Positions 12,020-44,682 of a stretch of DNA of 64,000 bases are shown one piece after another. The notes under the pieces are model-generated. The model was not told the origin of the DNA, did no database searches, and worked only from the letters and a program-made list of their open reading frames with translations. The position numbers and the translations under genes were made by a program. The DNA is from Methylophilaceae bacterium (lineage in GTDB: Bacteria; Pseudomonadota; Gammaproteobacteria; Burkholderiales; Methylophilaceae): positions 2,416,416 through 2,480,415 of the forward strand of contig OZ252007.1 of NCBI GenBank assembly GCA_965247415.1, written 5' to 3'. Position 1 is the first letter of the stretch, and every line of letters begins with the position of its first letter.

Positions 12020-12109
12020 GGAAGAGTGGCAGAGCGGTTTAATGCTACAGTCTTGAAAACTGTCGTGGGTGCGAGCCCACCGTGAGTTCGAATCTCACCT
12101 CTTCCGCCA
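12020..12109 (+). tRNA. tRNA-Ser (anticodon UGA), with encoded CCA
   Basis: Hand-folded: acceptor GGAAGAG/CTCTTCC, anticodon stem ACAGT/ACTGT with loop CTTGAAA (anticodon TGA), long class-II variable arm, T-arm GTGAG-TTCGAAT-CTCAC and terminal GCCA. Confidence 0.95.
12081..12109 (+). repeat. attL core: 3' 29 nt of tRNA-Ser, repeated exactly at 44654-44682
   Basis: CGTGAGTTCGAATCTCACCTCTTCCGCCA occurs at both positions. The flanking bases differ on both sides. Confidence 0.9.
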
Positions 12110-12129
12110 GAATAACTAAGCCAGTACTC

Positions 12130-12390
12130 GTTCTAAGAAGTGCAGGTTTTTTTTGGGCTAAATTTGGGCTATTTAGCCTCGAATTGATGTTATTGATCTC
12201 ATTTGAGTTGTCTGACAATTCTATCCACCGAGCATAAACTTCTAGCAACATTTTCATGTTTACGTGGCCCATCTGTTTTGACACCTACATCGGAGCTCCG
12301 ATCACCTAGCGCCTTTCTTGGAGTGAAATACAACAAGCCTATATCACCGTTTCTGAGCATACCCGCAGTAAAAGTTAATCTTAAGTCAGT
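12130..12390 (-). pseudogene. tyrosine recombinase (integrase) C-terminal remnant
   Basis: Minus-strand translation gives ..DLRLTFTAGMLRNGD.. then an in-frame TAG (12285-12287), then SKQMGHVNMKMLLEVYARWI. These match the box II pattern (HxLRHTF.....G......LGH.....T..Y). No intact N-terminal domain is present upstream. Boundaries are approximate. Confidence 0.6.
12152..12171 (+). repeat. 20-bp motif TTTGGGCTAAATTTGGGCTA (2 x 10-bp TTTGGGCTA unit), copy 1
   Basis: Identical 20-mer at 44554-44573. Both copies lie inside the island, 42 bp from the attL core and 80 bp from the attR core. Confidence 0.8.
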
Positions 12391-12903
12391 GATATTGCAT
12401 ATGCTGTAATAATCGTCTCATTAAATGGCACAGCGGGTTTTTATGATTAGCATATCCTTCGCAGTTCCTGCCGGCTGAAAGATTACCTCGGTAGCTGGCA
12501 GCATAAGTCAAGTTAGTAAAACCACCGCCATCAATCGAACCAGCCAAACGCTCAATGTCAATTGGCAAAACTTTAACGTGAACAATTACGAAACCGTTAA
12601 CTTCGAGCAACCTAACAAAGCGATAAGTTGTTTGCACTCATGTCTGAAGAGGGGTTTGAGATGCACTAAGAAGTCAGATTTATCAGAGGTCATCACTTTA
12701 CATAACAGCCTGAACTCTAGGTTAGTGAATATTCTAGTGGAAAGAGCCACACATAACTATAAAATGAAGCCAATTTCCTATTTGCTAATCAGTGACGATT
12801 GGCTCAAAAATCCCCAAAGCGGAAGTTCAAATATTTCTAGTCTATTACTTATTTTGATCTTAATTATTACTAATAGAAAATCATTTAATAACTATAAATT
12901 TAT

Positions 12904-13383
12904 TTATAACCCCAAATCACTAAGACTAGGATGGTCATCGGGTCGTCTTCCCTGTGGCCAATGAAAAAGTCGCTCAGACTCTTTAATCGTTAAGTTATTA
13001 ATGCTTGCAAAGCGCTTTTTCATCAGGCCGTTTTCATCAAACTCCCAGTTTTCATTGCCGTAAGAGCGAAACCAATTTCCTGCTTCGTCATGCCACTCAT
13101 AAGCAAATCTCACAGCGATACGGTTATCAGTAAATGCCCATAGCTCTTTAATTAGTCGGTACTCATGTTCTCGCGCCCACTTACGAGTTAAAAATGCTTC
13201 AATCTCTGCTCTGCCACGCGGAAACTCTGAGCGGTTTCTCCAAATGCTGTCTGGGGTATAGGCGAGAGCTACGCGCTTGGGATCACGCCCATTCCAACCA
13301 TCTTCTGCCATGCGCACTTTTTGAGAGGCAGTCTCGGCTGTAAATGGTGGAAACGGTGGGCGGCTTTCTGTAGGTGTATTCAT
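12904..13383 (-). CDS. DUF1348 (NTF2/SnoaL-like fold) protein
   Basis: 159 aa. The sequence (PPFT.ETA..KVR.AEDGWN.RDP..V.LAYT.DS.WRNR.EF..GR..I..FL..KW..E..YRL.KELW.F...RIAVRF.YE) is characteristic of the DUF1348 family. Confidence 0.8.
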
Positions 13384-13431
13384 GTAAAAGCTCCTTGATG
13401 AATGAATGTAATAATAGATATTAAACTTCGG

Positions 13432-14028
13432 TTACATCCCAGGCATGCTAACGTATCTGGGTAGTGCTTTGAATCTGGCAAGCCAAGCAATAACAGAAGA
13501 AAAGCGCGATAGATCTACTTTGCCTTCATGCGCGAGGGCAATGTATGGATATAAGGCAATATCTGCAATCGTTGGTGCATCTAATGCTATCCAATCATGG
13601 TTGGTCAGCCGATCCTGCATAATGTTGAGCAACTTTTCTGTGATTTCTTCTGCCTCAACCGGGTTAATTAGTCGACCAAATTTATGATGAAGTCGCAATG
13701 CATTTGGGCCACGTACAATTTCATTGGCGGCGGTAAACAGCCAAGCCATGATTTCTGATAGACGGGCAGAATCGTTAGGCCACCAAACCTCGCCACCGTA
13801 ACGATGGGCTAGGTAGATTAGAATGGCCTGACTATCGCGAATGAGGGTGCCATCATCGTTAAGCACAGGCACTTGCCCGAGCGGGTTCATTGCAAGAAAG
13901 TCTCTGGATTTATGCTCAAGTGAGCTACCATTTACAAGGATGCTTTGGTAGTTTAAGCCTAAAAAACTGAGCATGAGCCGCACTTTGTGACAGTTACCTG
14001 AGAGTGCAAATTCGTAGAGTTTAATCAT
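13432..14028 (-). CDS. glutathione S-transferase family protein
   Basis: The GST N-domain starts at MIKLYEFALSGNCHKVRLMLSFLGL.. and includes QVPVL..DG. The start is set to ATG 14028 because the ORF-track start at 14127 would overlap the upstream gene. Confidence 0.8.
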   Translation of the reverse strand: MIKLYEFALSGNCHKVRLMLSFLGLNYQSILVNGSSLEHKSRDFLAMNPLGQVPVLNDDGTLIRDSQAILIYLAHRYGGEVWWPNDSARLSEIMAWLFTAANEIVRGPNALRLHHKFGRLINPVEAEEITEKLLNIMQDRLTNHDWIALDAPTIADIALYPYIALAHEGKVDLSRFSSVIAWLARFKALPRYVSMPGM

Positions 14029-14050
14029 TGTGTTTCCTATTGTTTGCGTT

Positions 14051-15640
14051 TTATAAGTCGAGCACCAATTTAGGAGTGTTTGCTCGAGACACACAGATAC
14101 ACATCTTCTTGCCGTGTGTGCGTTCACGTTCGGTCAGAGCGGAATCAAGATGCAATGGCGAACCTTCTAACACGTTCACAGCGCAGGTGCCGCAATTGCC
14201 GACCTTGCATTCGGATAAGGTTTTTACCCCCGCAGCTTCTACCGCACTGAGTATGCTTTCATCGGGCGTTACGTATAGGGTTTTGCCAGAGCGACGTAAC
14301 TCAACTTCTATCGCTTGCGCATGAAGAGGCTCTGGCGCAGAAAAGCGCTCAAAACGTATTTGTGTCTCTGCGATGCCGAGCGACAATGCAGCCTGCTGAA
14401 CACCTTTGAGCAAGCGTTCTGATCCGCACACATAAAACAAAGCATCATGCGCGACTTCAGCCATGATTTTTTCAAGGTTAATCGCTTGCTGGGTAGAGAT
14501 ATGCAAGATCAGTCGTTCATCAAACTCATGCTGCAAAGCTTCAACATACGCCATTTCATTCTGCGTGCGGCCGATATAGTGCAAATGAAAAGCGTGACCG
14601 CTTTGTTTAAGTGTTCTCGCCATAGCTAAGATGGGGGTAATGCCAATTCCCCCCGCAATAAGCACAGCGGGTATATCCTCACTTTGTAATGCAAAGTCAT
14701 TGCGTGGTAGTCCACAATGCAGTTGCATGCCTAGCTGATAGTGTTCGTGTATAAAGCGTGAGCCACCCTTGCCTTCAGCCTCATGCAATACCGCAATTTC
14801 GTAGAAATTATTTTGGCTAGGGTTAGAACTAATCGAGTAATTTCGCGTACTGGCTAGTCCATCCGCAAGCATGACTGGCACGCTTAAATGCACCCCTGCA
14901 CTTACTTTGGGCAGCGCTTCCCCAAGTGGGTGACGTAGCTGGTAGGCGCGTATCTTTGGGGTCAGTTGCTGCACGCTTGTAATCACCAGCGACAATTGGC
15001 CTTCCCCTAAAGTTTGCATTGGTGCTTGCCCTGAACTTTGCGCACGTAACTGTTGATTTTCTTCTATCAACGGCTTCAGCACCGCCTCCATTTCGGCCTC
15101 AGTATAGCGTGGGATAATGTGCTGCGGGCAGTTCCACTCCACGGCTTCTACTTGAATCAAAATACCGCGCTCAACACGCGCACGATAGCTCGGCATTTCA
15201 AGACGCGAGATGAGTTCTGGCTCTTCGTCTTGGTGGATGACCCTGGTGGATCCCCATATTTTTAGGCGACGGCGATTGGGATAATCCATCAAAATAATTG
15301 AAATGCGCGGGTTGGCGTTGAGGTTGCCCACGCTCAGATATTGTCGATTGCCTCGAAAATCAGCAAAGCCTATGGTGCGTGCGTCTAGCACTTTTAAAAA
15401 GCCTTGTGGGCCGCCACGGTGTTGTACATAGGGCCAGCCATTTTCGGAAATGGTCGCCATGTAAAGACTATCACGCGCTGCAATAAACTCAGCTTCAAAT
15501 GCGCCGATTTCATTTTTGGGATCATCCGCGAGCTCAAAACCAAGATTACTTTCACGGCTGCCGTAACGTGTTTGGGCCGCTTTGACGCTCTCAGTAAAAC
15601 TAATGGTGGCAAATGCGTTTGGCATATCAGGCCTCTTCAT
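14051..15640 (-). CDS. three-domain oxidoreductase: PNPOx-like FMN-binding domain + FNR-like FAD/NAD(P) domain + plant-type 2Fe-2S ferredoxin
   Basis: 529 aa. The N-terminus has the pyridoxamine-5'-phosphate-oxidase-like split barrel (GWPYVQHRGGPQGFLKVLD...FADFRGNRQY). The middle is a phthalate-dioxygenase-reductase-like flavin/NAD module (RNYSISS, IAGGIGITP). The C-terminus carries CKVGNCGTCAV...C. Confidence 0.8.
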   Translation of the reverse strand: MKRPDMPNAFATISFTESVKAAQTRYGSRESNLGFELADDPKNEIGAFEAEFIAARDSLYMATISENGWPYVQHRGGPQGFLKVLDARTIGFADFRGNRQYLSVGNLNANPRISIILMDYPNRRRLKIWGSTRVIHQDEEPELISRLEMPSYRARVERGILIQVEAVEWNCPQHIIPRYTEAEMEAVLKPLIEENQQLRAQSSGQAPMQTLGEGQLSLVITSVQQLTPKIRAYQLRHPLGEALPKVSAGVHLSVPVMLADGLASTRNYSISSNPSQNNFYEIAVLHEAEGKGGSRFIHEHYQLGMQLHCGLPRNDFALQSEDIPAVLIAGGIGITPILAMARTLKQSGHAFHLHYIGRTQNEMAYVEALQHEFDERLILHISTQQAINLEKIMAEVAHDALFYVCGSERLLKGVQQAALSLGIAETQIRFERFSAPEPLHAQAIEVELRRSGKTLYVTPDESILSAVEAAGVKTLSECKVGNCGTCAVNVLEGSPLHLDSALTERERTHGKKMCICVSRANTPKLVLDL

Positions 15641-15713
15641 CTTTAAATGTTATCTATGTGAGGATTATGGCAAGAACAACTCGCAATAAGAATACTCACG
15701 AAAGACAATTAAT

Positions 15714-15734
15714 TATTTCAATATTTGGAATAAT
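15714..15734 (+). promoter_or_regulatory. 21-nt AT-rich dyad-like motif TATTTCAATATTTGGAATAAT, near-identical to 19806-19826
   Basis: The two copies match at 8 + 9 flanking positions with a 4-nt central variation. This copy lies 74-94 nt upstream of the oxidoreductase start (15640). The other lies in the LysR divergent promoter region. Confidence 0.35.
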
Positions 15735-15748
15735 CTTTCTGAGTAGCG

Positions 15749-16222
15749 CTATTTTGTATTTTGCTGAAAGCGACTCAATAACCATGCATCCATTGAATAC
15801 TTACCAACGCCAGAAACTGCAATCATTGCAAATAGGCTGCCCCAAAGGATGTGTTGCGATAAGGCTACGGGCGGAATATCGACCAAGCTGATGACGGCCA
15901 TGCCATTCACAATACATAAACCGATAGCAGAAAACCGACCCAGCAATCCAGCCGTCAGCAAGATTGGTAAAAGTAATTCGCCACCTGTTCCCATCCATGC
16001 CGCCAGCTCGGGCGGGAGTAAAGGCACGTGGTACTCTTCATTAAATAAAAACAAGGTACTGTCCCAATCCCTCACCTTGGTGAGGCCTGATAAGAAGAAA
16101 ATCTTGGCTAGGTAAAGTCTAGCTATCAATAAGCCTAACGATGTGAGCTTTTCAAGTTGCCCTAGCAACATGTGCTGCCAGTGATAAACGCGGATAAATG
16201 ATGGTGTCTGAATTGTTTTCAT
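15749..16222 (-). CDS. DoxX-family membrane protein of the MNIO/bufferin-type operon
   Basis: Its ATG at 16222 overlaps the upstream stop (ATGA). It is a DoxX-like 4-TM protein (LIARLYLAKIFFLSGLTK) and the last gene of the DUF2282-DUF692-DUF2063-DoxX set. Confidence 0.8.
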   Translation of the reverse strand: MKTIQTPSFIRVYHWQHMLLGQLEKLTSLGLLIARLYLAKIFFLSGLTKVRDWDSTLFLFNEEYHVPLLPPELAAWMGTGGELLLPILLTAGLLGRFSAIGLCIVNGMAVISLVDIPPVALSQHILWGSLFAMIAVSGVGKYSMDAWLLSRFQQNTK

Positions 16223-16989
16223 AATGAATCTCCTAATTGATTTGAGGTAAAGCCTATGGCTAGGCATTGTTGTAATGCACTCTGCAACCAAGGTAATGTT
16301 TTTTCGCCCATGTTGGATGCCTCATTAATTGCATGCGCTAAGCTTTTGCCTTGTAATAGGCTTGAAAAAAACAAATACGCTTCGTGAGTAATGATGGAAA
16401 GTGACGCACGCCAATGCTCACGACTAATAAGCAGATACTGCTGCGCACCCTCCGATAAAGGTTGATTGGCCTGATCTAACCATGTTTCGCGATTTTCCTT
16501 AGCGTGATGGGCCTGCCAAATTTCCAAGAGTGGAAAGCGAGAGGCCATGACGGCCACATAATGTGTCGGGTTTAAATGCAAAAATTGCCCGTCTATGGCG
16601 TTAAGTAAGGCGATAGAAGCAACTGTATGTTCTGGTGTTGCAGCGCGTTTCAAGCGATGACAAAACCAATCAAGTTGTGCTACATCTGCCAGAAAAGGCA
16701 TGTCATGCAGAGTCTCTTGTTGTGATAGCCATTTCGCCAGATGCTCACCCCATTCACCCCAATCGCCAGTGTGCAATGGATGCGCATCATAATAAAGTGC
16801 AGCCACAGCTTGCAGCCCTTCTGCACCAAGCAGTTGATCAAGTGTAGGAAAGCTAATGTCGAGCGTACGTGAAGCGCTTGCAAGCAGGTTGCTGCGATAA
16901 ACCAGAATGCCTTTTGGCGGTATTGCGGCAGTTTTGTGTGCAATAGAACGCGCAAATTGTTCTGGTGAACCGTCAATCACGCTGATCAT
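16219..16989 (-). CDS. DUF2063-domain RiPP maturation partner (BufC/HvfC-like)
   Basis: 256 aa from ATG 16989, which forms an ATGA overlap with the MNIO gene stop. It has the DUF2063 hallmark ..LVYRSNLLASASRTLDISFPTLDQLLG. Confidence 0.8.
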   Translation of the reverse strand: MISVIDGSPEQFARSIAHKTAAIPPKGILVYRSNLLASASRTLDISFPTLDQLLGAEGLQAVAALYYDAHPLHTGDWGEWGEHLAKWLSQQETLHDMPFLADVAQLDWFCHRLKRAATPEHTVASIALLNAIDGQFLHLNPTHYVAVMASRFPLLEIWQAHHAKENRETWLDQANQPLSEGAQQYLLISREHWRASLSIITHEAYLFFSSLLQGKSLAHAINEASNMGEKTLPWLQSALQQCLAIGFTSNQLGDSL

Positions 16990-17846
16990 GATGTAAGCAC
17001 CCCTTGCAAGATGCTCCGTGCGATTTGTGCTTCGGCGACCAAGGCTTCCCAGCTTGGCAAATCGTTGTCCCATTCAATCAGCGTGGGTATTGCGCCAAAG
17101 CGTTTTAAAGCCAAACGATAAGCCTGCCAAACGGTTTCAGATACAGGGTGACTGTGATCATCAATCATCAGCTCGCCTTCGGCTGGTGGCGTGCATCCAG
17201 CAAGATGTATTTCACCAACAACGGTTATGGGGATAGACGCTATCCACTGGCTTACATATTCAATTGGGTTTGGGATAGCGCTATTTGTCGCATTCACGAC
17301 CAAATTATTTAAATCCAACAACAGACCACAACCAGTGCGTTGCGTTAGCTCGGTGAGGAATTCTGTTTCAGACATACTACTGCTGCTAAACGCCACATAA
17401 GCAGAAATGTTCTCCACTAACATCTGTCTCTTTAAGCTGTTTTGTAGCGTATCAACGTTTTCACATAACGCGCCTAAACACGCCTCATTAAACGCTAACG
17501 GTAATAAATCGCCAGCATGCTGTAGTTCATCATGGTGCAGAGTCCATCCATGCGCAGCGTGGTCAGATACCAAAATAGGATTCGTGCGTTCCACTAAACG
17601 TTTAAGCTTTTGCACATGCTGTGGCGCTACACCCGCTTTTGAGCCAAGACCTAATGCCGTGGCGTGCAGACTGATGGGAAAACGAGCGGCCGCTTCATCA
17701 AGCACAGCGATGCTCGCACCCCCGTCTGCAAAAAAATTTTCTGCATGCACTTCCACAAAATCCACCAAAACATCAGAGTTAAGCGCAGCTTCATAATGCG
17801 GGCTTCTAAGACCAACGCCTATCATGTGTTGCGTAACGGTTTTCAT
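16986..17846 (-). CDS. DUF692 / MNIO (multinuclear non-heme iron oxidative) enzyme (BufB/HvfB/MbnB-like)
   Basis: 286 aa with a TIM-barrel DUF692 signature at the N-terminus (IGVGLRSPHYEAAL...VDFVEVHAENF), and later SLHATALGLGS, HLAG and LIEWD. Confidence 0.88.
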   Translation of the reverse strand: MKTVTQHMIGVGLRSPHYEAALNSDVLVDFVEVHAENFFADGGASIAVLDEAAARFPISLHATALGLGSKAGVAPQHVQKLKRLVERTNPILVSDHAAHGWTLHHDELQHAGDLLPLAFNEACLGALCENVDTLQNSLKRQMLVENISAYVAFSSSSMSETEFLTELTQRTGCGLLLDLNNLVVNATNSAIPNPIEYVSQWIASIPITVVGEIHLAGCTPPAEGELMIDDHSHPVSETVWQAYRLALKRFGAIPTLIEWDNDLPSWEALVAEAQIARSILQGVLTS

Positions 17847-17871
17847 GGGCTGATACTGACTTCGTTAACGT

Positions 17872-18156
17872 TTAAGATTTTGTAGACTTAAACTTGGCCT
17901 TGGCTTCAGCATCCACCAGACCATTCAGTGATTTGCATGTGCCTTTTGCAACCAGCTTCCACTCGCCAATATCATTGTTTGTTTTGGACTGACCAGCACA
18001 CGAATGCGTACCTGCTAAATTGGCACAGTCGTTTTGCCCAGCCTTGACGATGCCGTAGCATTTTTCTTTGTTTGGGTCTGCGGCAAAACTGGTTGAAGAA
18101 ATGCCATTGGCAACTAAGCCAGCTAAGGCTGTTGCGAGGAATAATTGATGATTCAT
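17872..18156 (-). CDS. DUF2282 family secreted Cys-containing precursor (bufferin BufA1-type)
   Basis: Sec signal peptide (MNHQLFLATALAGLVANGISSTSFA) followed by the DUF2282 core EKCYGIVKAGQNDCANLAGTHSCAGQSKTNNDIGEWKLVAKGTCKSLNG, which has 4 Cys. An SD-like AAAGGA precedes ATG 18156. Confidence 0.85.
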   Translation of the reverse strand: MNHQLFLATALAGLVANGISSTSFAADPNKEKCYGIVKAGQNDCANLAGTHSCAGQSKTNNDIGEWKLVAKGTCKSLNGLVDAEAKAKFKSTKS

Positions 18157-18181
18157 GATAGTTCCTTTCATTGATTAAAAT

Positions 18182-18514
18182 TTAAATGCCAAAGCCTTCA
18201 TGATGAATGAGCCAACGATTAATCTCTGACTCCGCATGATGACCAACCATTGTGTCTACTAGCTCGCCGTCACGCAGTAGTACCAAAGTCGGCACGCTAC
18301 GCACATTGAAAAACGCGGCAATTTCTTCCTGTTGGTCTATATTCGTTCTGGCAGCAAGCAAATTTGATTTGTAGCGGGATGCGACGCGCTCGAATACGAT
18401 GCCTAAACGTTGGCAAGAGGCGCAACAAGATGACCAAAAATCAATTAACACCCAGCGATGTTGCGTAGCTAGCTCGGCCAAGTGTTCAGTTTTATTAATA
18501 TGAATAATGCTCAT
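18182..18514 (-). CDS. thioredoxin-fold protein with atypical CASC active site
   Basis: 110 aa with the motif LIDFWSSCCASCQRL in the thioredoxin position and no signal peptide. It ends 10 nt upstream of the DUF2282 ORF. Confidence 0.7.
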   Translation of the reverse strand: MSIIHINKTEHLAELATQHRWVLIDFWSSCCASCQRLGIVFERVASRYKSNLLAARTNIDQQEEIAAFFNVRSVPTLVLLRDGELVDTMVGHHAESEINRWLIHHEGFGI

Positions 18515-18570
18515 TTCAGGCTCCTTAAGCTCTGAGCCATCTCAAATGACAAGATGGCTCAGATGATGTC

Positions 18571-19074
18571 TTACAAGTCTTTAGGGGCTTTGTTACGAAG
18601 TTGTGGCCACTCTGACTCAGCTTTTGTCAAATTACCTGGCACGTCTTCTAACCATTTAGTCTGTACTTCTTTGTTAAGGTTGAGGTAGAGCTTGTTGTCC
18701 ACCACACGCCATGCTTGTGGGTCGCCATCAAGCTTTTTACCTAATGCCACGCCCATTGCACAAAAGCCGCCGTACTGAGGTACAAATTTTTCTGAATTTG
18801 CCTTAAATGCATCTCGGTTTTTTGCATTGGCAAAATGGTAGGTTGCGCCTTTGTAAGATGCGGTGAATTTATCGGAACCTTCTACTGGCGCGGCATTTGT
18901 AAAGTAAGCCACAGGGTCGTAGCCTTTAATCGCTACGCCTTGTTTATCCACATTGAGTGCGCTAGTAGAGGTTTCGTCATAGGCAAAGGCCAATTCAGGC
19001 ACAATGGTGACAAGGGTGCTGGTACTTAAAATCGCCGCTAATAGGAGGTGACGGCTAAAAAATTGGGTTTTCAT
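18571..19074 (-). CDS. secreted YHS-domain protein
   Basis: Signal peptide followed by VAIKGYDPVAYFT...KF.ASYKGATYHFANAKNRDAF..NPEKF.PQYGGFC, typical of YHS-domain proteins. Confidence 0.75.
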   Translation of the reverse strand: MKTQFFSRHLLLAAILSTSTLVTIVPELAFAYDETSTSALNVDKQGVAIKGYDPVAYFTNAAPVEGSDKFTASYKGATYHFANAKNRDAFKANSEKFVPQYGGFCAMGVALGKKLDGDPQAWRVVDNKLYLNLNKEVQTKWLEDVPGNLTKAESEWPQLRNKAPKDL

Positions 19075-19124
19075 AATGTGATCCTTTAAAAATAATGAGT
19101 GTTAATGAATAAAATACGCGTGTC

Positions 19125-19670
19125 TTAAGCCGCCACTTTTAATGCCACTTTTGGAAAATCAATATCTAATTGACTGGCTTTACCAATCATGTTGGTCAGT
19201 ACGTTCATGCCTACATGGGTAATAATCTCCACAATCTCAGCATCGCTGTAGCCAGCTGCACGTGCCTCAAGTAACTCCGCAGTCGTCACATCGCCAGTAT
19301 GTTCTGCAATTGAATTAGCCAGTTTGACGGCCACTGCAGCTTTTGCGTCTTGGCTAGTGCCGGCGCGATTTGCAGAGATTTCATCGCCAGTTAAACCAGC
19401 TTTGCGACCAATAGCGGTATGCGCGGATAAACAGTACTCGCAAGAGTTTTGTTGTGCCAAAGCTAGGGCGATACGTTCGCGGGTTTGTGGGTCTAGGCTG
19501 CCTTCATTCGCTATACCATGCAAACCTAAGAATGCACGTAATGCAGCAGGCGAGTTGGCGAATACTTTTAAAAAGTTAGGCACCATCCCTAGTTGTGATT
19601 GAATAGCATCTAGCAATGCTTTTTGCTCTGAATTTGCAGTTTCATTTGTAACAGTAGTAATACGGCTCAT
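19125..19670 (-). CDS. carboxymuconolactone decarboxylase / AhpD-like family protein
   Basis: 181 aa with the AhpD-type CxxC motif in context (QQNSCEYCLSAH). Confidence 0.8.
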   Translation of the reverse strand: MSRITTVTNETANSEQKALLDAIQSQLGMVPNFLKVFANSPAALRAFLGLHGIANEGSLDPQTRERIALALAQQNSCEYCLSAHTAIGRKAGLTGDEISANRAGTSQDAKAAVAVKLANSIAEHTGDVTTAELLEARAAGYSDAEIVEIITHVGMNVLTNMIGKASQLDIDFPKVALKVAA

Positions 19671-19826: not shown

Positions 19827-19830
19827 TAAG

Positions 19831-20736: not shown

Positions 20737-20759
20737 TGAAATCCCTTTGGAGAGCTGCT

Positions 20760-36730: not shown

Positions 36731-36738
36731 TTAAGCAA

Positions 36739-38391
36739 ATGACCACTGCACATTTTCAACAGCTTTTTCTACAAGCTCGGACCCTATCAGAAAAAAATGG
36801 TCAACGCGCTATTGAGCAATTGGAAACGCTCTCTCAACTTTCACCCCCGATATTTACTGAGCAATTGGCTACTTTGTTTTCTTACCCTGTTTTATCCTTG
36901 GATGAGATGCAAATTTTGACACCCGATTTTCAGCGAATTAATTTCTCAGAAAGTTTGCAATATGAATGTTTGTTGCTAAAACGAGATGAAACTTACTTAT
37001 TTGTATTTGCTGATGTGTATAAGCAAAGTGTCATTGCTTGGGCGGCAGAGCGCATTCAAACGGCATTTGTCACACATTTAGCGCATCGAGCGGATATTGC
37101 TGCATTCTTGGCTAAGCATGAAGATGAAACACGTGCCATGCAAAGTGCGATGCACCATGTGGGCGTGACTAAGCAAGAGGGTGAAACGAAAGAAGAACTT
37201 TCGCTCAATGTGATTGAAGGGGATATTAGCCCCGTCATTAAACTTGTCCGTTCCACGCTTTATGATGCACTTAAAGCAGAAGCAAGTGACATTCATTTAG
37301 TGACAGCACCTGACGGCTTGGTAATTAAATATCGTTTAGATGGTGTATTAACACAAATTGGTGCAATCAATGAATTGTCATTAGCGGAGCAAGTGGTTTC
37401 CCGTATTAAGGTGATTTCTGAGCTTGATATTACCGAGCAGCGTGTGCCACAAGATGGACGCTTTAGAGCCGTTTATCGTGGTCGTGATGTCGATTTTCGT
37501 GTGTCCGTGATGCCAAGTATTCATGGCGAAGATGTGGTGATTCGGGTTTTGGATAAGCAAACACTGGCTGACCAATCGGTTGGTTTGCGTTTAGATGTGC
37601 TGGGCTTTGATGCTGAAACGATGGCGGTGATGCGTGAGCAGTTTGCCATGCCTTATGGAATGGTGTTAGTCACTGGGCCAACAGGCAGTGGCAAAACCAC
37701 AACACTCTATGCGGCTATTAGTGAAATTAATCGTGGTGACGACAAAATTATCACCATTGAAGACCCTGTAGAGTATGAATTAAAAGGGGTTTTGCAGATT
37801 CCCGTGAATGAGAAAAAGGGTCTGACTTTTGCCCGGGGGTTGCGCTCAATTTTACGTCACGACCCTGACCGCATTATGGTTGGGGAAATTCGAGACAGTG
37901 AAACAGCGCAAATTGCGGTGCAATCTGCGTTAACTGGGCATTTGGTATTTACAACTGTACATGCAAATAATGCTTTTGATGTCATTGGGCGCTTTATAAA
38001 TATGGGTGTTGATCCTTATAGTTTTGTTTCAGCCTTAAATATAGTTGTTGCTCAACGATTGTTGCGTGTGAATTGCCCGCAATGTGCAGAAAAGGTTACT
38101 GCAAATATTCCCTATAAAAATATTGTGATTCCAGCCAGTGCGCAATTAAAACGTGGTAAAGGATGCGGTACTTGTCGTGGCACTGGCTACAAAGGACGGC
38201 GTGCAGTGGCGGAAATTTTAATATTAGATGATGAGTTGCGTGAACTTATCGCCAATCGTGGCTCCATTCGACAAATTAAAGAATTGGCAGCCAAAAAGGG
38301 CACACAATTCTTACATCAATCTGCACTGAACATGGCTTTTGCTGGTGAAACAACGATTGAGGAGGTGCTACGTGTTGCTCCCTTGGTCTAA
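36739..38391 (+). CDS. GspE/PilB-family secretion ATPase (cluster 1)
   Basis: Walker A GPTGSGKTT, Asp box, Walker B (IMVGEIRD), His box (LVFTTVHAN) and a tetracysteine motif (CPQC...GCGTCRGTGYKGR). Confidence 0.95.
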   Translation: MTTAHFQQLFLQARTLSEKNGQRAIEQLETLSQLSPPIFTEQLATLFSYPVLSLDEMQILTPDFQRINFSESLQYECLLLKRDETYLFVFADVYKQSVIAWAAERIQTAFVTHLAHRADIAAFLAKHEDETRAMQSAMHHVGVTKQEGETKEELSLNVIEGDISPVIKLVRSTLYDALKAEASDIHLVTAPDGLVIKYRLDGVLTQIGAINELSLAEQVVSRIKVISELDITEQRVPQDGRFRAVYRGRDVDFRVSVMPSIHGEDVVIRVLDKQTLADQSVGLRLDVLGFDAETMAVMREQFAMPYGMVLVTGPTGSGKTTTLYAAISEINRGDDKIITIEDPVEYELKGVLQIPVNEKKGLTFARGLRSILRHDPDRIMVGEIRDSETAQIAVQSALTGHLVFTTVHANNAFDVIGRFINMGVDPYSFVSALNIVVAQRLLRVNCPQCAEKVTANIPYKNIVIPASAQLKRGKGCGTCRGTGYKGRRAVAEILILDDELRELIANRGSIRQIKELAAKKGTQFLHQSALNMAFAGETTIEEVLRVAPLV

Positions 38392-39148
38392 ACCCTTAAT
38401 CTTAACCATCGCTGCACACAGTATTGCGCTTAAAGATTCAAATAGTAAAGTCCACTTGCTATCTAAGCAAACCACAGATTTTGCGAATATTCCAAATGTA
38501 TTAGAGAAAGTTAAAGCGCTTTTTAAAAGGCAATCTGTTGAGATCATACTTTCAAATCATTTTGTAAGATTTTTAGCTTTACCTTGGCAAGCGCACATTG
38601 TGCAACTACAAGATTGGCAAGCCATTGCGCAACACGCGTTTAAAAAAGAATTTGGTGCGATGGCTAACGACTGGAAAGTGGCCGTGCATTTATATGGATT
38701 TGGTCAGCCTATTTTAGCCACAGCGATGGATAAAAGTGCCATTCATCATCTTAATGAAGTTGCTATGCTGATGGATTTTAAAATTCAATCTATCATCCCC
38801 TTATTAAATAAATGTTGGTCGCAACATTTAACAGAAAAAGATTGGCTGCTTATTGTTGAACCGCAAAGGCTATTATTAGCGCAAATGCAAGCATGTATTT
38901 GCAATCAAATGGTGGTTGATATGCCACCATCAGGGCAAGAGCAACAACATGCAACACAATTAGTACAGCGCAGCTTGATGCAAACGCCCGAGACTTTGCG
39001 CCCAAGTCGCGTGCTGACTTACGTAACAAGTGAAATACAGGAAAATTGGCAAAAAAATGGGGATTCCATCATTAAGCTGGTAAATCCAGTGGTGAATAAT
39101 CAACCGCATGCAGTTTGGATGGCAAATTTCTTGGATGACAAATTTTAA
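38372..39148 (+). CDS. PilM/GspL-like assembly protein (cluster 1), family assignment tentative
   Basis: The GTG start overlaps the end of gspE and is preceded by GAGGAGG. It is positional and sequence paralog of 48125-48982 and occupies the PilM/GspL slot before three single-TM proteins. Confidence 0.4.
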   Translation: MLLPWSKPLILTIAAHSIALKDSNSKVHLLSKQTTDFANIPNVLEKVKALFKRQSVEIILSNHFVRFLALPWQAHIVQLQDWQAIAQHAFKKEFGAMANDWKVAVHLYGFGQPILATAMDKSAIHHLNEVAMLMDFKIQSIIPLLNKCWSQHLTEKDWLLIVEPQRLLLAQMQACICNQMVVDMPPSGQEQQHATQLVQRSLMQTPETLRPSRVLTYVTSEIQENWQKNGDSIIKLVNPVVNNQPHAVWMANFLDDKF

Positions 39149-39165
39149 GTCATCAAGCTAATGGA

Positions 39166-39693
39166 TTGAAAGTGAATACAATGCAAAAACCTAATTTTAA
39201 TTTTGTGACTCATTCAGTTTTGAAAAAATCATCGATTGATTTTATCTTAGTTGCATTGGCAATATTATTAGCGGCGATTTTATTTATAGTTTATCAATTT
39301 AAATTAAGTGCATTCAATGATCTTCAAGCAAAAAAAGATGCACAGCCTGTCATCAGGACAAAGCCAATTAATCCACAATTCGCAGAACATTTACAACATT
39401 TTAAGATTGCTCAACATACCCTTAATGTGCCTTGGATGGAAACTTTTAACGCGCTAGAGTTGGTAAAGCAAGCGCATCCAAATGTGCAATTTTTGTCCGT
39501 AGAGCCTAATCTGAACCGTAATGAAATTAAAATTAAAGTGAAGGCAGAAGCATTTGATGAAGTGACCGCTTTACTAGAGTCGTTACGAAAATCACCACTG
39601 TTTAATGAAGCGGAATTAGTGAGTCAGCATATTGAAACCACCGATGAGGAAGTGGTTACTGTATTTGATATACATTTAGGGTGGAAAATATGA
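39166..39693 (+). CDS. PilN-like single-pass membrane protein (cluster 1)
   Basis: A short cytoplasmic N-terminus, one TM (IDFILVALAILLAAILFIVY), then a coiled coil and a small periplasmic domain. The start is uncertain (TTG 39166 or ATG 39181). Confidence 0.45.
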   Translation: MKVNTMQKPNFNFVTHSVLKKSSIDFILVALAILLAAILFIVYQFKLSAFNDLQAKKDAQPVIRTKPINPQFAEHLQHFKIAQHTLNVPWMETFNALELVKQAHPNVQFLSVEPNLNRNEIKIKVKAEAFDEVTALLESLRKSPLFNEAELVSQHIETTDEEVVTVFDIHLGWKI

Positions 39694-40241
39694 GTTTCTT
39701 TTCTATTGAATTAAGTGCAAAAATTAAATGGCAATTAATCCGATTTTTTGACCAAGTTGGTTTGTTAGGTCGCGCCGCTTTATTATTAGTTTTTCTTTTA
39801 ACGGTGCTATTTTTTATCCGTTGGCAGGCATTGCAAAACAAAATAAATACCATGCATCTTGAGGTGCCCGGAATCACAAAAAATACTGATGCATATGTAG
39901 ATCAAGAAAAAATGCTCGCAGATGCGCTCGTCAAATTTCCCAAAGTAGATGATAAAGCGCAAACTTTTAATAGATTGATGCAACTTGCCAATGCGCAAGA
40001 GCTTACGTTAGATGCAGTGACTTATAAAACAAAACATAGCGAAAGCACAGCACCATTAAGTCAAACAATGGTGGATTTTACTTTGATTGCAACTTATCCA
40101 GAAGTGCATGATTTTATTAACAAAGTCATGGTAAGTATGCCTTTTGTGGCGATAGAGCAGCTCAGTTTTACTCGTATTAATAATGAAGATGACGTGATTG
40201 AAGCGCGTATAAAACTACTCTTTAACTTTGTGCTGAATTGA
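39690..40241 (+). CDS. PilO/GspM-like single-pass membrane protein (cluster 1)
   Basis: ATGA overlap with the upstream stop. It has a TM (GRAALLLVFLLTVLFFI) followed by a ~130-aa periplasmic domain. Confidence 0.45.
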   Translation: MSFFSIELSAKIKWQLIRFFDQVGLLGRAALLLVFLLTVLFFIRWQALQNKINTMHLEVPGITKNTDAYVDQEKMLADALVKFPKVDDKAQTFNRLMQLANAQELTLDAVTYKTKHSESTAPLSQTMVDFTLIATYPEVHDFINKVMVSMPFVAIEQLSFTRINNEDDVIEARIKLLFNFVLN

Positions 40242-40246
40242 GTTTA

Positions 40247-40783
40247 ATGACGATGAAAAAAAGCAATGCATGGATATTGTGGGGAGGTTTATTCTTGACG
40301 CTGATATTGACTTGGCGCATGAGCACTCATGATGCTTCAGAGCAGACCGTTTTGCCTATCAGAATATTGGCGCAAACTAACATACCATTGCAAATGCGAG
40401 ATATTCAACCTTTTCAGCAAAGTATTGGTGAGAATGAAAAGTTAACTTTAAGAAAGTCTTATGAAAGCATATCGGATTTATTTGCATTAGCAGAAGTAAA
40501 GGAAGAACCTGCAGAAACAAACCGTAAAAAGTCACAAGTGCAACCTATCATAGTGCCACCTTTGCCTTTTAAATATATCGGGCGCTGGAAAGACCAAACA
40601 CAAACGCTGGTGCTTCTTAGTATGAATGATGAAATTATTTCTGCAAAAGTGGGTGATACCATTTTTAATAAATATCAATTACAAAATGTGACTGAAAATG
40701 CGCAAGTATTAACTTTGCAGTTTTTAAATCAACCTTTTCACCAAACACAGATACTTCAAGTAGGGAAAGCTCAAGATGAATAA
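40247..40783 (+). CDS. PilP-like periplasmic protein (cluster 1)
   Basis: An N-terminal anchor, a linker, then PLPFKYIGRW...TLVLLSMNDEIISAKVGDTIFNKYQLQNV, which resembles the PilP beta-domain pattern. Its end overlaps the secretin start. Confidence 0.45.
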   Translation: MTMKKSNAWILWGGLFLTLILTWRMSTHDASEQTVLPIRILAQTNIPLQMRDIQPFQQSIGENEKLTLRKSYESISDLFALAEVKEEPAETNRKKSQVQPIIVPPLPFKYIGRWKDQTQTLVLLSMNDEIISAKVGDTIFNKYQLQNVTENAQVLTLQFLNQPFHQTQILQVGKAQDE

Positions 40784-42698
40784 AGCCACGCTCATAAAAA
40801 CAGGCTTTTATTTTTTAGTCATTCAATTAGGCATGCATTTAACTGCTTGCGAAACAATGACGGCTAAATTACACACTCAAAAATACGATGTAAATCAACT
40901 AGAGAATCCAAAAGAAGCTAAGCAGATTCCAGAAAAAATTCAAAATATCAATGCGCGTGAAGCTAAAATTCAGCAGTTGATTCAAGATGCGGAGCATGCA
41001 AAGCGTGAAGGAAATTTTGACGAAGCGGCGCGGTTTTATGATGAACTTCTCGCTTATGACTCCAATAATTTGAAAGCGCAAGATGGTTTGTTGCAGTTAA
41101 GTTTAGAGAAAAAACATGCAGAATTATTGGCAGATGCAGAAAACATTTTATCTGAGTCCACAGAAAAAAATCGCTTAGAAAAAATAGAAGCTGCACTTAC
41201 TAAACTGCATAAAATATTATTAGAAAATGCGCAGCACCCTAAAGCGTTGGCGTTGAATCAGCATTTATTAGCGGAACAATTGCAATTAATGCAGGCTAAA
41301 AATGTTAAAAAATTGGCGTTTAACCAACCAGTGACGATGGAATTTAGAGATGTAAATATCAAAATGATTTTTGAGTCACTTTCTAAAATGGCAAAAATTA
41401 ATTTCATTTTAGATAAAGATATTCCAAGTGATCAAAAAGCAACCATTTTTGTAAAGTCGGTTGAGTTTAATGATGCGCTAGATTTATTACTACAAACAAA
41501 TCAATTAGAAAAAAAAGTTCTCAGCGATAACTCTGCCATTATTTATGTGAATGACCCGCTTCGCCAAAGAGAATATAAAGATCTTTCAGTGCGGAGCTAC
41601 ACGTTGGATTACGCAGATGCAAAACAAATGAGTACGATTTTGCGTTCCATGTTAAATATTCGGAATATGGAAGTAGACCCACGTTTAAATGTGTTGCTGA
41701 TTAAAGATTCACCTGAAATTTTACAGTTAGCAGAAAAAATTATTTATGCGCAAGATAAACCAGATCCAGAAGTCTTACTTGAATTGCAAGTGATGGAGAT
41801 TAAGCGCTCATACTTACAAAATCTAGGGGTGAATATGCCCACAGGCGTGAATGTGCCTGTGCCTAGTTCAGGTATTCTCACGGTTAAAGACTTAAGTAAT
41901 GTCACGGGAAGTTCCCTCATGGTCAATGGCGTACCAGGGTTAGTGTTTAATGCCACTAATGGCGATGTGAACTTGCTCGCAAATCCACGTATTCGGGTTA
42001 AGAATAAAGAAGTTGCAAAAATTCATATTGGTGAAAAAGTGCCTGTGTTTACTTCAAATGTCGCATCTACGGGGGTGACATCGCAGTCAATTCAATATAT
42101 TGATGCAGGTCTTAAATTAGAGGTTGAACCTTCAGTAAGCTCAACGGATGATGTCACGATTAAAATCAATCTTAACGTGGGCTCAATCGGCGATAAAGTG
42201 ATCGCCTCAAGTGGTGGCAATCAAAGTGTTGCGTTTAGAGTGGGGACAAGATTAACCAGTACACAGTTGCGTTTGCACGATGGCGAAACGCAATTGCTAG
42301 CAGGGTTAATAGATGACCAAGACCGAAAAAATGTGAGTGGCATTCCAGGGCTATCAAATATTCCTTTGTTAGGAAAGCTTTTTTCTAGTCAAACCGATGA
42401 CAAAGTAAAAACAGAAATTGTACTTTCCATTACGCCGCATATTATTCGGCCAAGAACCCCACAACAAGCACATGAGTCTGAAATTTGGGTCGGTTCAGAA
42501 GGGCGCGCAGGTAAACGTTCAGCAAGTCCGAGATTTGAAAATGGCGCATCACCTTTTATTGTGCCGCAACCGCCAAAACCTGCGCAAACAGCACCAAAAT
42601 CTGAAGAACCATCGAATATTAATATTCCATTACCAACAGGCTTTTCATTAGGAACAGGTTTAACGCCACCGACGAAAGAAGGCGCGGATAAGCAGTAG
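40776..42698 (+). CDS. secretin (GspD/PilQ/MshL superfamily) lipoprotein with N-terminal TPR-like domain (cluster 1)
   Basis: Lipobox (MHLTAC), a TPR/helical region of ~170 aa, an N0-like domain (VTMEFRDVNIKMIFESLSKMAKINFILDKDI) and a secretin core (NPRIRVKNKEVAKIHIGEKVPV; LRLHDGETQLLAGLIDD...SGIPGLSNIPLLGKLF...IVLSITPHII). The C-terminal tail is P/Q-rich. Confidence 0.9.
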   Translation: MNKATLIKTGFYFLVIQLGMHLTACETMTAKLHTQKYDVNQLENPKEAKQIPEKIQNINAREAKIQQLIQDAEHAKREGNFDEAARFYDELLAYDSNNLKAQDGLLQLSLEKKHAELLADAENILSESTEKNRLEKIEAALTKLHKILLENAQHPKALALNQHLLAEQLQLMQAKNVKKLAFNQPVTMEFRDVNIKMIFESLSKMAKINFILDKDIPSDQKATIFVKSVEFNDALDLLLQTNQLEKKVLSDNSAIIYVNDPLRQREYKDLSVRSYTLDYADAKQMSTILRSMLNIRNMEVDPRLNVLLIKDSPEILQLAEKIIYAQDKPDPEVLLELQVMEIKRSYLQNLGVNMPTGVNVPVPSSGILTVKDLSNVTGSSLMVNGVPGLVFNATNGDVNLLANPRIRVKNKEVAKIHIGEKVPVFTSNVASTGVTSQSIQYIDAGLKLEVEPSVSSTDDVTIKINLNVGSIGDKVIASSGGNQSVAFRVGTRLTSTQLRLHDGETQLLAGLIDDQDRKNVSGIPGLSNIPLLGKLFSSQTDDKVKTEIVLSITPHIIRPRTPQQAHESEIWVGSEGRAGKRSASPRFENGASPFIVPQPPKPAQTAPKSEEPSNINIPLPTGFSLGTGLTPPTKEGADKQ

Positions 42699-42700
42699 CC

Positions 42701-43222
42701 ATGTTCAATAAACGTTCAACGAAAGGTTTCTCATATGTGGAAATGGTATTTGTTGTTGCCATGTTGGCGCTCATGGCCGCTGTTGCAACGCCTTATTTGG
42801 AAAAAAATATTCAACGCAAAAAAGAAACTGAGCTTAAACAAAATTTGCGTGAAATTAGAATGGCAATTGATGCTTATAAAGCTGCATTTGATGCGGGAAA
42901 GTTTGCAAAAGGCATTTCTTATAGTGGGTACCCAAAAAATTTAGATGATTTAGTGAATGGCGTAGATGATGTCACAGACCCACAAAAAAAGAAGCTATTT
43001 TTTTTAAGAAAAATACCCGCAGACCCGATGTTTTCAGATGCGCAATTACGTGAATCTCAGAATGATGGCGCAAATGCTGACCCTATTAACCCCGCAGATA
43101 CATGGGGAAAACGTAGTTATGAGAGTGATGCGGATAATCCTAAAGAAGGTCGTGATGTGTATGACATTTTTTCATTAAGCCCTGATGTGGGTGTGAATGG
43201 CATACCATACGCAAAATGGTAA
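42701..43222 (+). CDS. GspG-like pseudopilin A (cluster 1)
   Basis: Prepilin motif KG/FSYVEMVFVV with Glu at +5 and a GspG-like body (YPKNLDDLV, IPADPM). The C-terminus is GIPYAKW. Confidence 0.8.
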   Translation: MFNKRSTKGFSYVEMVFVVAMLALMAAVATPYLEKNIQRKKETELKQNLREIRMAIDAYKAAFDAGKFAKGISYSGYPKNLDDLVNGVDDVTDPQKKKLFFLRKIPADPMFSDAQLRESQNDGANADPINPADTWGKRSYESDADNPKEGRDVYDIFSLSPDVGVNGIPYAKW

Positions 43223-43224
43223 AT

Positions 43225-43605
43225 ATGCATAAAAATGTAATACTTCGTGGCTTTACGATGATAGAACTCATGATTGTGATGGCAATGATTGCAACCATCA
43301 TCGCAATTGCGATGCCACGCTACTTTGACGGCTTGCACCGCACCAAAGAAATGGCATTGAAGCAAAATTTAAAAGAAATGCGTGAGGCAATTGGCCATTA
43401 TCATGAAGATAAAGGACAATATCCAGCAACGTTAGACACGCTGGTTCTGGAGCGTTACTTGCGTTTTATTCCAGTTGATCCCATCACACAGAGTGCAGAA
43501 ACTTGGCAAATTGTAGAGATGTCACAAGGCCAACGCGGTGTTTATGACGTGCAAAGTGGTTCACCCGAGAATGCAGACAGCGGTGTTCCTTATAATAGTT
43601 GGTAA
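43225..43605 (+). CDS. GspG-like pseudopilin B (cluster 1)
   Basis: Prepilin motif RG/FTMIELMIVM with Glu at +5, YPATLDTLV, IPVDPIT and the C-terminus GVPYNSW. An alternative ATG is at 43216. Confidence 0.8.
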   Translation: MHKNVILRGFTMIELMIVMAMIATIIAIAMPRYFDGLHRTKEMALKQNLKEMREAIGHYHEDKGQYPATLDTLVLERYLRFIPVDPITQSAETWQIVEMSQGQRGVYDVQSGSPENADSGVPYNSW

Positions 43606-43608
43606 TGT

Positions 43609-44169
43609 ATGCGTGCTTCTTTGAAAACAAAGCAAATTCAAACCCAAAGAGGCTTTGCTTATATTGTTTTACTTTTTTTAGTGGCCGCTATTTCTGTCAC
43701 CATTGCAATTGTTTCGCAAGATGAAGCAACCTTGCAAATGCGTGAGAAAGAGCGTGATTGGTTGTTTATTGGGCATCAATACCAGCAAGCTATCAAGCGT
43801 TACTATGAAAAATCTCCTGATGGCATAAAAACCTTACCAAATAACATAGATGATTTGGTGTTAGATAGTCGCTTCATAAAGCCAGTCCATCATTTACGCA
43901 AGCCATATTTAGACCCCTTAACAGGAAAAGAATGGGCTTTGATTAGAAACGAAGAAGGCTTTCTTATTGGCGTAAATAGTGAATCGGCCAATCCAGTTTT
44001 TTTGCAACAAATGGTATCGCAGTTAATAGAGTCTTCCAGTGCTATTTCGCAGCATACAGATGTGAAATTTGTATTTAAAGTAGATGATGCAGAGTCTGAA
44101 GATTCAAATGAAAATCAAGAGATCGATAATTTAGATAGCGTTGAATCCGAAGCTATTGTTAGCCAGTAA
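43609..44169 (+). CDS. pseudopilin-like protein lacking Glu5 (cluster 1)
   Basis: RG/FAYIVLLFLVAAI has a prepilin-like hydrophobic N-terminus with Val at +5. The C-terminal tail is acidic. Confidence 0.5.
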   Translation: MRASLKTKQIQTQRGFAYIVLLFLVAAISVTIAIVSQDEATLQMREKERDWLFIGHQYQQAIKRYYEKSPDGIKTLPNNIDDLVLDSRFIKPVHHLRKPYLDPLTGKEWALIRNEEGFLIGVNSESANPVFLQQMVSQLIESSSAISQHTDVKFVFKVDDAESEDSNENQEIDNLDSVESEAIVSQ

Positions 44170-44553
44170 CTAATTCTATGTAGATGCAGATTGCGCACAT
44201 TCATTTGTGTGATTCATAGAAGACGTTTCAACATAATTGGGGTGAATTAAGTTGGGGACCTCTTGGGTCTCTAAGACATTTAATTTGATAAATTTATTCA
44301 AAGAAACATAGTTTTTCTACATCTAGATCACCTACAGGGCAATTAAGATGAATGTCAGCTTTAGAGAGTAAGTATGAATATAAAAAATCAGACGGGCAGC
44401 TTATCCCCCATTCTGTTGAAAAACTCCTAATGGCAATATCTAGACCTATCTGGTCTTCATCAGCACTTATCTGAGTTTTATAGCTATACAGGTAGACCGT
44501 ATGTACCTGCGCTAAATAGCCAAGTATTCGCAATTCGGGAATGGCAAAAAACG

Positions 44554-44573
44554 TTTGGGCTAAATTTGGGCTA
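44554..44573 (+). repeat. 20-bp motif TTTGGGCTAAATTTGGGCTA, copy 2
   Basis: Identical to 12152-12171. It lies 80 bp inside the island relative to the attR core. Confidence 0.8.
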
Positions 44574-44653
44574 AAATTGAGTTGAACTATGTACAACCAT
44601 GTTCACTAAGTTATTGATGTGTATAGCTATGTATAACCATGTTTTATATGTTG

Positions 44654-44682
44654 CGTGAGTTCGAATCTCACCTCTTCCGCCA
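44654..44682 (+). repeat. attR core: orphan copy of the 3' 29 nt of tRNA-Ser
   Basis: Exact match to 12081-12109. No remaining tRNA body lies upstream of it. Confidence 0.9.

Follow-up and report, generated by a model that had tools for sequence, protein, structure and literature searches.

The 64,000-nucleotide stretch of contig OZ252007.1 from a Methylophilaceae bacterium that was analyzed here (the window) contains a tRNA-Ser(UGA) gene, located downstream of def, whose 3′ end is repeated exactly at a distant position. We conclude that the interval between the two copies (12110–44653) is probably the content of an integrative element that a lambda-like tyrosine integrase inserted into the 3′ end of this tRNA gene in a Methylotenera-like methylotroph, and that this element was subsequently, in all likelihood, emptied and refilled in place. 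The locus is a tRNA-associated additive genomic island that resides on prophage remnants; features of this kind are well known, and the mosaic history of this one is instructive. Judging from its sequence, the integration module of the element, denoted element 1 below, is of the temperate-phage type. The features at the ends of the island, including the attachment (att) sites, are:

12020 to 12109, forward strand: intact tRNA-Ser(UGA) gene (ARAGORN, Rfam and repeat search), the last 29 nucleotides of which (12081 to 12109) are the attL core.
12110 to 12175, forward strand: P′ arm of element 1, made up of a degenerate hairpin and then the tandem 11-mers TTTGGGCTAAA and TTTGGGCTATT (12152 to 12173); the integrase gene reaches into it with its 3′ end.
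12147 to 12400, reverse strand: integrase remnant 1, the C-terminal part only, with an in-frame stop and, upstream, a frameshifted ‘RxTF..ML..G’ box; the portion from 12293 to 12147 is similar to the integrase of viral contig L173.
44538 to 44653, forward strand: P arm of element 1, with the 11-mer TTTGGGCTAAA twice in tandem plus a degenerate third copy (44554 to 44584) and two CTATGTA(C/T)AACCATGTT boxes.
44654 to 44682, forward strand: second copy of the 29-nucleotide core, serving as attR of element 1 and attL of the remnant element 2.
44683 to 45152, reverse strand: what is left of a second element from this family, comprising a P′ arm, the tandem 11-mers TTTGTACAATA and TTTGTACTAAA (44728 to 44749; TTTGTAC-type), integrase remnant 2 and about 330 bp of unassigned DNA.

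The tRNA-Ser(tga) at 12020–12109 on the forward strand is the sole tRNA that ARAGORN detects in the window, and Rfam agrees on its identity and position (57.2 bits). Its 3′-terminal 29-mer, CGTGAGTTCGAATCTCACCTCTTCCGCCA, is present in exact copies at 12081–12109 and 44654–44682, which are 32,573 bp apart, start to start; no further copies were found in the window with up to 3 mismatches allowed, and 100 shuffles produced 0 matches. Neither ARAGORN nor inspection of the sequence revealed a tRNA body ahead of the second copy. The initial annotation of this DNA, which had reported both the exact repeat and the lack of a second tRNA body, is correct on these points; it had also stated that the flanks of the two copies diverge on both sides, which is only half of the picture. 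To the left of the two copies, the sequences are indeed unrelated to each other, but those to the right, although different by eye, are distantly homologous, each consisting of an arm with tandem 11-mers and, beyond it, the 3′ end of a reverse-strand integrase gene. The locus accordingly combines an intact tRNA, a directly repeated copy of its 3′ end at the opposite boundary and an integrase, in this case a pseudogene only, beside the att site, as is typical of tRNA-targeting islands.

The arms themselves contain a second exact direct repeat, the 20-bp sequence TTTGGGCTAAATTTGGGCTA, which is found at 12152 and 44554, that is, 43 nucleotides past the left core and 81 nucleotides ahead of the right core, and a search of the window showed that the exact 11-mer TTTGGGCTAAA is restricted to the two element ends. 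A scan of IMG/VR with the tRNA-derived core yielded 67 viral contigs, among which L173, L184 and L223 were informative. In L173 and L184, homologs of the right end from the window, the core and the left end from the window are contiguous, in that order. When attP was rebuilt in silico by joining 44480–44682 to 12110–12420, it aligned with L173 in a single colinear high-scoring segment pair (HSP) of 344 bp (E = 1.7e-35) and with L184 in an HSP of 191 bp. Thus, the two ends together form an attP, complete with core and arm sites, that is present in related elements, and the proposal of the initial annotation that the repeats are attL and attR of a tRNA-targeting integrative element is borne out. 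The arm 11-mers vary among the elements but are the same in P and P′ within each (TTTGGGCTAAA in the window, TTTGTGCTAAA in L173 and TTTGGGGCAAA in L184 and L223), as would be expected of arm-type integrase-binding sites, which these are predicted to be. L223 is a prophage at the def-tRNA-Ser locus of a relative (Def 75% identical), and its integrase gene reads towards the tRNA, as in the window; L184 codes for tail proteins and an amidase, and the integrase of L173 is classed as phrog_1. Four near-identical viral contigs (L163–166) that contain the arm 20-mer, with no tRNA core or integrase nearby, were judged unrelated, and a match of the right flank to L185, L187, L189 and L229 was rejected as an AT-rich extension beside a tRNA-Ser gene.

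The integrase of element 1 survives as approximately 50–85 codons with a stop codon and frameshifts. In a tblastn search, the 12293–12147 portion (49 amino acids, with one in-frame stop) showed 69% identity to residues 334–382 of the 386-amino-acid L173 integrase (E = 6.5e-12), and the remnant can be aligned to the catalytic C-terminal region of phage integrases, including the R-x-T-F box, G-H and V-Y-A-R-W. This decisive match came via the viral contigs found with the att core. A tblastn search of phage genomes with the remnant returned weak matches (E values of 1–9), 11 of 12 of which nevertheless fell on integrases, and a sequence search of PDB gave no match. The claim that a tyrosine-integrase remnant abuts the tRNA is confirmed by these alignments.

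Unexpectedly, the same tblastn search detected a second remnant, on the other side of the right core (44821 to 44729; 31 amino acids, 68% identity to residues 350–380 of the L173 integrase, E = 1e-7, with an in-frame stop). The DNA to the right of the second core is therefore not plain chromosome but the P′ arm and integrase stump of a second member of the family, element 2, of which all but about 470 bp has been deleted. Given this remnant and its arm, the accessory region extends to about 45152. The nearest relatives of the adjacent secretion gene cluster (cluster 2, see below), L071 (83.8% nucleotide identity) and L072 (88.5%), have homology to the window that sets in only at 45153 and runs to the right; upstream of this position, the window, L071 and L072 all differ from one another. 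No third copy of the core was found within the window. The resulting order is tRNA (attL), element 1 (12110–44653), core, element 2 remnant (44683 to about 45152) and cluster 2. Hence the att pair at 12.1 and 44.7 kb stands as originally delimited, but the accessory DNA runs on as far as about 45152, and the tRNA gene ancestrally had a different neighbor from the present right flank.

Comparison with relatives indicates what this ancestral neighborhood looked like. The left flank of the island is core DNA (smc, zipA, ligA, msrPQ, a purine-nucleoside-phosphorylase-family gene (PNP) and def), and Def and PNP are nearest to Methylotenera metagenome-assembled genomes (MAGs), at only 71–81% identity. 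Scans of genomes and metagenomes with Def recovered no relative above 75% identity and hence no conspecific empty site. In 29 of the 48 Methylotenera-like loci, a Cupin_3 gene lies 53–85 bp after def-tRNA-Ser, behind a terminator hairpin, and the ancestral order continues with a second cupin gene, a glnD-like gene and map. About one-third of the Methylotenera relatives carry other insertions at tRNA-Ser (loci lacking the cupin gene were judged only where the sequence extends far enough past the tRNA). Directly after the tRNA, P4-type integrases with arm-binding domains are found in L007, L014 and L099, an IS30-like transposase in L005 and signaling genes in L018; these arrangements support integration at this attB.

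Two further loci show related arrangements. L066 (2582–6038) contains two extra copies of the tRNA-Ser 3′ 20-mer (4821 and 6019), in a tandem array of two islets of 2.1 and 1.2 kb. In L082 (10677–20546), an inverted locus resembling cluster 2 (ATPase E2 72% identical, with a GspG-like gene) starts 45 bp after def-tRNA-Ser, which suggests repeated rearrangement, or cargo of such a kind, at the same tRNA.

The interior of the island is divided into three modules, the genes of which were identified with Pfam annotation of all open reading frames (ORFs) of at least 80 amino acids and with NCBIfam; the gene content given in the initial annotation is confirmed by both. The loci of interest within the modules include two clusters for bufferins, which are peptides that are synthesized ribosomally and modified post-translationally (RiPPs), and a cluster resembling a type II secretion system (T2SS):

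12808 to 21703: cassette 1 (module 1), GC content 0.46, with DUF1348, GST, PNPOx-FNR-Fer2, buf1DCBA, Trx, YHS, CMD, LysR and nitrilase genes.
15749 to 18171, reverse strand: buf1DCBA, encoding DoxX, DUF2063, MNIO and BufA1 (PF07681, PF09836, PF05114 and PF10048, respectively).
21859 to 31953: module 2, with CMD2, VTT/DedA, the buf2 locus, Trx, DsbD/CcdA-like, DUF1223, an IS3-family element and GGDEF-EAL.
23907 to 25962, reverse strand: buf2 locus (NCBIfam), consisting of BufC (23907 to 24683), BufB (24680 to 25516) and BufA2 (25612 to 25962).
28464 to 29805: IS3-family element with the terminal inverted repeats TGACCCGTCCTGAAATA and TATTTTAGGACGGGACA.
30001 to 31953: GGDEF-EAL gene.
33017 to 44169, forward strand: module 3, with a 364-amino-acid helix-turn-helix (HTH) protein, an HbpS-like protein and T2SS-like cluster 1.

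Cassette 1 stands out from the rest of the interval. Its GC content is 0.456, compared to about 0.39; in tetranucleotide usage, it correlates with the flanks at 0.79–0.87, compared to 0.92–0.97 for the other segments among themselves. The compositional check proposed at the outset thus sets apart 12.8–22.4 kb, but finds 22.5–44.65 kb to be core-like. Cassette 1 is 90.2% identical at the nucleotide level, over 8.9 kb, to a region of L159, where its neighbors are umuDC and an antirestriction gene, and 83.7% identical to a region of L157, where an integrase and RecJ adjoin it at one end and a type I restriction-modification system adjoins it at the other. Its proteins are 86–99% identical to their L159 counterparts, compared to 75–82% for core proteins. 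Cassette 1 thus recurs in two other mobile-element contexts and is horizontally mobile. A comparison with plasmids revealed sub-blocks only (DUF1348-GST-PNPOx), at 67–70% nucleotide identity. Two AhpD-like CMD proteins are among the products of the cassette.

Both 15749–18171 and 23907–25962 combine a precursor, an MNIO maturase and a DUF2063 partner and can be classified as bufferin biosynthetic gene clusters. In the buf1 locus, BufA1 (DUF2282) contains 4 Cys, and the MNIO, denoted MNIOa, falls just under the BufB cut-off (303.8 against 310). In the buf2 locus, both BufA2 (NF050166, 105.5 bits against a cut-off of 60) and BufB (NF050167, 386 against 310) exceed their cut-offs. The BufA2 precursor (25612–25962, reverse strand) carries a signal resembling a lipobox (LAGC), and its roughly ten Cys lie in repeats of the N-x-C-K-G type, which are encoded by three tandem 39-nucleotide units (25687–25803). 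A buf2-like MNIO (64% to MNIOb) and a DUF2063 gene also occur in a Hydrocarboniphaga MAG (L028, 13213–14800), about 3 kb downstream of def, which is probably coincidental. An IS3 element 87.5% identical at the nucleotide level to that of the island is present in another Methylotenera contig, L077 (11235–12579), about 400 bp downstream of the same tRNA-Ser, whose adjoining cupin gene is kept there.

The modules are bordered by copies of a short element of about 60 nucleotides, with a 5′ box GAATGNCNGCTT..TCCCC, a 3′ box AAATCCCCAAAGC and arms that form an imperfect palindrome (CCGCTTTG/CAAAGCGG). The three copies in the window, all in direct orientation and located at the borders of the three modules, are:

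12741 to 12831, forward strand: boundary element A, a variant copy with the 3′ box AAATCCCCAAAGC that is common to B and C; 91 bp are common with the end of the L157 cassette.
21735 to 21795, forward strand: boundary element B (CGAATGACTGCTTATCCCCCC...AAATCCCC...), with a shorter copy of the motif at 21689 to 21707.
32237 to 32295, forward strand: boundary element C, which has about 80% identity to B and lies in direct orientation.

The same element borders the cassette in L157 (about 6040–6099 and 15871–15961) and in L159 (about 6145–6175 and about 15051–15110), where it flanks the cassette as a direct repeat. It had no match in the viral contigs of IMG/VR, in Rfam or in the remaining 1.9 Mb of the compared loci, and its folding z-scores are weak (−1.3 to −2.9). 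An integron was considered and rejected: there are no attC RYYYAAC/GTTRRRY boxes, the only recombinase remnant is of the phage type, and the cassettes are 9–10 kb long and multigenic. The boundary element may be a recombination site, and we regard it as the main lead from this analysis. On a more speculative note, for which the odds appear to be low, these elements could be where an undescribed recombination system acts, one that transfers large multigene cassettes from one mobile element to another and assembles them into arrays, with the island interior being such an array; if so, copper-defense bufferin clusters would be directly mobile. Boundary element C is located within a 1.06-kb segment between the GGDEF-EAL gene and the gene for the 364-amino-acid HTH protein (31954–33016) that contains no convincing ORF and for which Rfam returned one match only, rli52, far under the threshold (E = 4.2).

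The T2SS-like cluster 1 of module 3 (35094–44169) encodes a GspG-type pseudopilin, F, E, L/N/M-like proteins, a secretin and minor pseudopilins. Cluster 2 (45176–54395), which is followed in the right flank by SLT, LuxR, DsbC and PEP-CTERM genes, lies back to back with cluster 1, with only the att core and the prophage stump between them. Both clusters include F, E, L/N/M-like proteins, an STN-secretin and pseudopilins, and each is conserved across Methylotenera; matching counterparts are 25–53% identical at the amino acid level, and the larger proteins 40–53%. Neither cluster qualifies as a canonical system: the cut-offs of NCBIfam for GspD/E, PilQ/B and MshL are not reached by either, and in Pfam and NCBIfam searches, the GspG of cluster 1 alone passes its cut-off, with the ATPases and the secretins under every NCBIfam cut-off and GspC, H, I, J and K not recognized. 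Cluster 2 has no GspG gene upstream of F and is set in a neighborhood of the PEP-CTERM/exopolysaccharide (EPS) type. It is chromosomal: its ATPase E2 is 77–82% identical across Methylotenera, and L070 has the same downstream order; the nearest E2 relatives (94–96% amino acid identity) are on contigs of 3–4 kb that end or diverge at 45153.

The location of module 3 is a different matter. Its orthologs (cluster 1 ATPase E1 76–81% identical) are situated between queC and rpsP-rimM-trmD in two lineages and beside gluQ in a third, so that the module is at a non-canonical place in the window. More specifically, the HbpS-like gene and cluster 1 lie between tol-pal-queE-queC and rpsP-rimM-trmD-rplS in L153 and L154 (7531–17541) and in L234 (7445–17401); in L155, the HbpS-like gene and cluster 1 module is beside gluQ and a metalloprotease. 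The module thus occupies at least 3 different loci in the genus. The initial annotation had treated everything between the repeats as cargo. This is shown only for the 8.9-kb cassette and the IS3 element; the T2SS-like module, although at a non-canonical place, is core-like in both composition and divergence.

The history that we favor would have begun with two successive integrations at the regenerated tRNA end, that of the distal element 2 followed by that of element 1. Deletions would then have removed the phage genes along with most of both integrase genes, and one of these deletions would have joined the stump of element 2 to the promoter region of cluster 2, removing or displacing the ancestral cupin-glnD-map flank. 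The interior would have been built up or replaced in place, through the accretion of at least three modules separated by the hairpin-like boundary element. The point at which the integrase gene is truncated lies about 340 bp away from boundary element A, which suggests that cassette 1 arrived after integration. Having no integrase, the island is unable to excise by itself, in support of the initial view that it is probably fixed in place; given that the cores and arms are intact, a related integrase acting in trans might still move it. The cargo, with its two bufferin loci, thioredoxins, DsbD, YHS and AhpD-like proteins, is predicted to contribute to fitness under periplasmic copper and oxidative stress, and would add a second T2SS-like machine.

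Several observations weigh against this history. Two-thirds of the interval (22.5–44.65 kb) is core-like in composition, and E1 is 75–81% identical to its counterparts in other Methylotenera, that is, as diverged as core proteins, so that some of the island may consist of native DNA that a rearrangement placed here. The metagenome that contains a near relative also contains a relative of cluster 1 (at least 90% amino acid and 77% nucleotide identity), and the module is therefore not strain-specific. The cupin/glnD-like/map block is missing from the window, and among the relatives, none was found in which the two flanks of this window are joined. Pfam does not recognize the integrase remnant. 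Finally, the order of events, with accretion following integration as opposed to transfer as a single unit, is one that we infer.

The simplest alternative, which corresponds to the initial annotation, is that the entire 32.5 kb formed a single circular island, equipped with a phage-type integrase and all of the cargo, which integrated once and whose integrase decayed later. The matching P and P′ arms, the identical cores and the lack of internal att copies all fit this scheme; the truncation of the integrase so close to a cassette boundary element, the IS3 insertion and the division of the interior into modules by repeated boundary elements do not, and cassette 1 differs from the rest in composition and divergence and is found alone in two other contexts. 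We therefore consider integration as a unit unlikely. A bare repeat arising by chance or by dispersal, or the stump of a second tRNA-Ser gene, with no relation to integration, would have to be entertained if there were nothing beyond the repeat itself; the absence of matches expected by chance speaks against this, and the homologous arms and integrase fragments at both copies, together with the contiguous attP in phage contigs, refute it for practical purposes.

It is also conceivable that only the att and integrase fragments and cassette 1 are foreign, and that modules 2 and 3 are chromosomal DNA brought in by deletions, inversions or recombination at the prophage remnants. The core-like composition of 22.5–44.65 kb and the divergence of E1 would be readily accounted for, as would the missing ancestral right flank with the synteny break at 45153, and L082, with its inverted cluster-2-like locus abutting the tRNA, could be a parallel case. 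However, recombination between prophages exchanges flanks rather than interiors, the arms at both ends are of the same variant and are oriented as from one integration, and module 3, being at the conserved core site queC-rpsP in relatives, must have moved in any case. Capture of native DNA accordingly strikes us as improbable, and integration followed by emptying and refilling in place remains the reading that we prefer.

If this reading is right, the island is an example of a prophage scaffold that was emptied and then refilled with adaptive cargo. The def-adjacent tRNA-Ser(UGA) is a hot spot for the integration of temperate phages and P4-type islands in Methylotenera, documented here with arm sites and a rebuilt attP. 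A complete buf1 operon travels in an 8.9-kb redox cassette that is found in three mobile-element contexts, which bears on the spread of a recently described copper-defense RiPP. A caution for annotation is that the right accessory boundary is at about 45152, not 44682, and that the adjoining paralogous secretion cluster is chromosomal.

With respect to the class of element, an intact prophage was rejected because the Pfam annotation contained no structural, lysis or replication genes and no island protein matched the related phage loci, and an integrative conjugative element because the same annotation contained no relaxase, coupling protein or conjugative type IV secretion genes. In lambda-type modules, the integrase gene reads towards attP, and arm-type sites lie on both sides of the tRNA-derived core. 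The island resembles the modules of this type in L173, L184 and L223 from IMG/VR in the sequence of the integrase C-terminus (69% identity), the colinear core, P and P′, and the position and orientation of the integrase relative to the tRNA, but differs from these phages in that it lacks phage structural, lysis and replication genes, retains the integrase only as a pseudogene and carries metabolic and secretion cargo. VPI-2 of Vibrio cholerae is likewise a large tRNA-Ser-adjacent island with a tyrosine integrase and flanking direct repeats; its integrase, however, is of the P4 type and is transcribed away from the tRNA, the cargo is different, and the host is unrelated.

The closest described parallel within the same family is the additive island of ‘Ca. 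Methylopumilus’, which is marked by recurring tRNA-Lys 3′ ends and has inserts with a T2SS operon and oxidative-stress genes (PMC10872708). The two islands share the repeated tRNA 3′ ends, the successive additions at one tRNA and the T2SS and oxidative-stress inserts; the one described here belongs to another genus, uses tRNA-Ser-UGA beside def and has only two cores, and its arm sites, attP and the phage origin of its integrase are resolved. The bufferin loci, in turn, correspond to the RiPP clusters buf1ABCD and buf2ABC of Caulobacter vibrioides (PMC11626156): as in buf1, BufA1 (DUF2282, 4 Cys), MNIO, DUF2063 and DoxX are found in the same order, and as in buf2, BufA2 and BufB, both above cut-off, are accompanied by DUF2063. 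Unlike in C. vibrioides, both buf loci are here contained in an att-bounded island, with buf1 inside an 8.9-kb cassette that moves between mobile elements.

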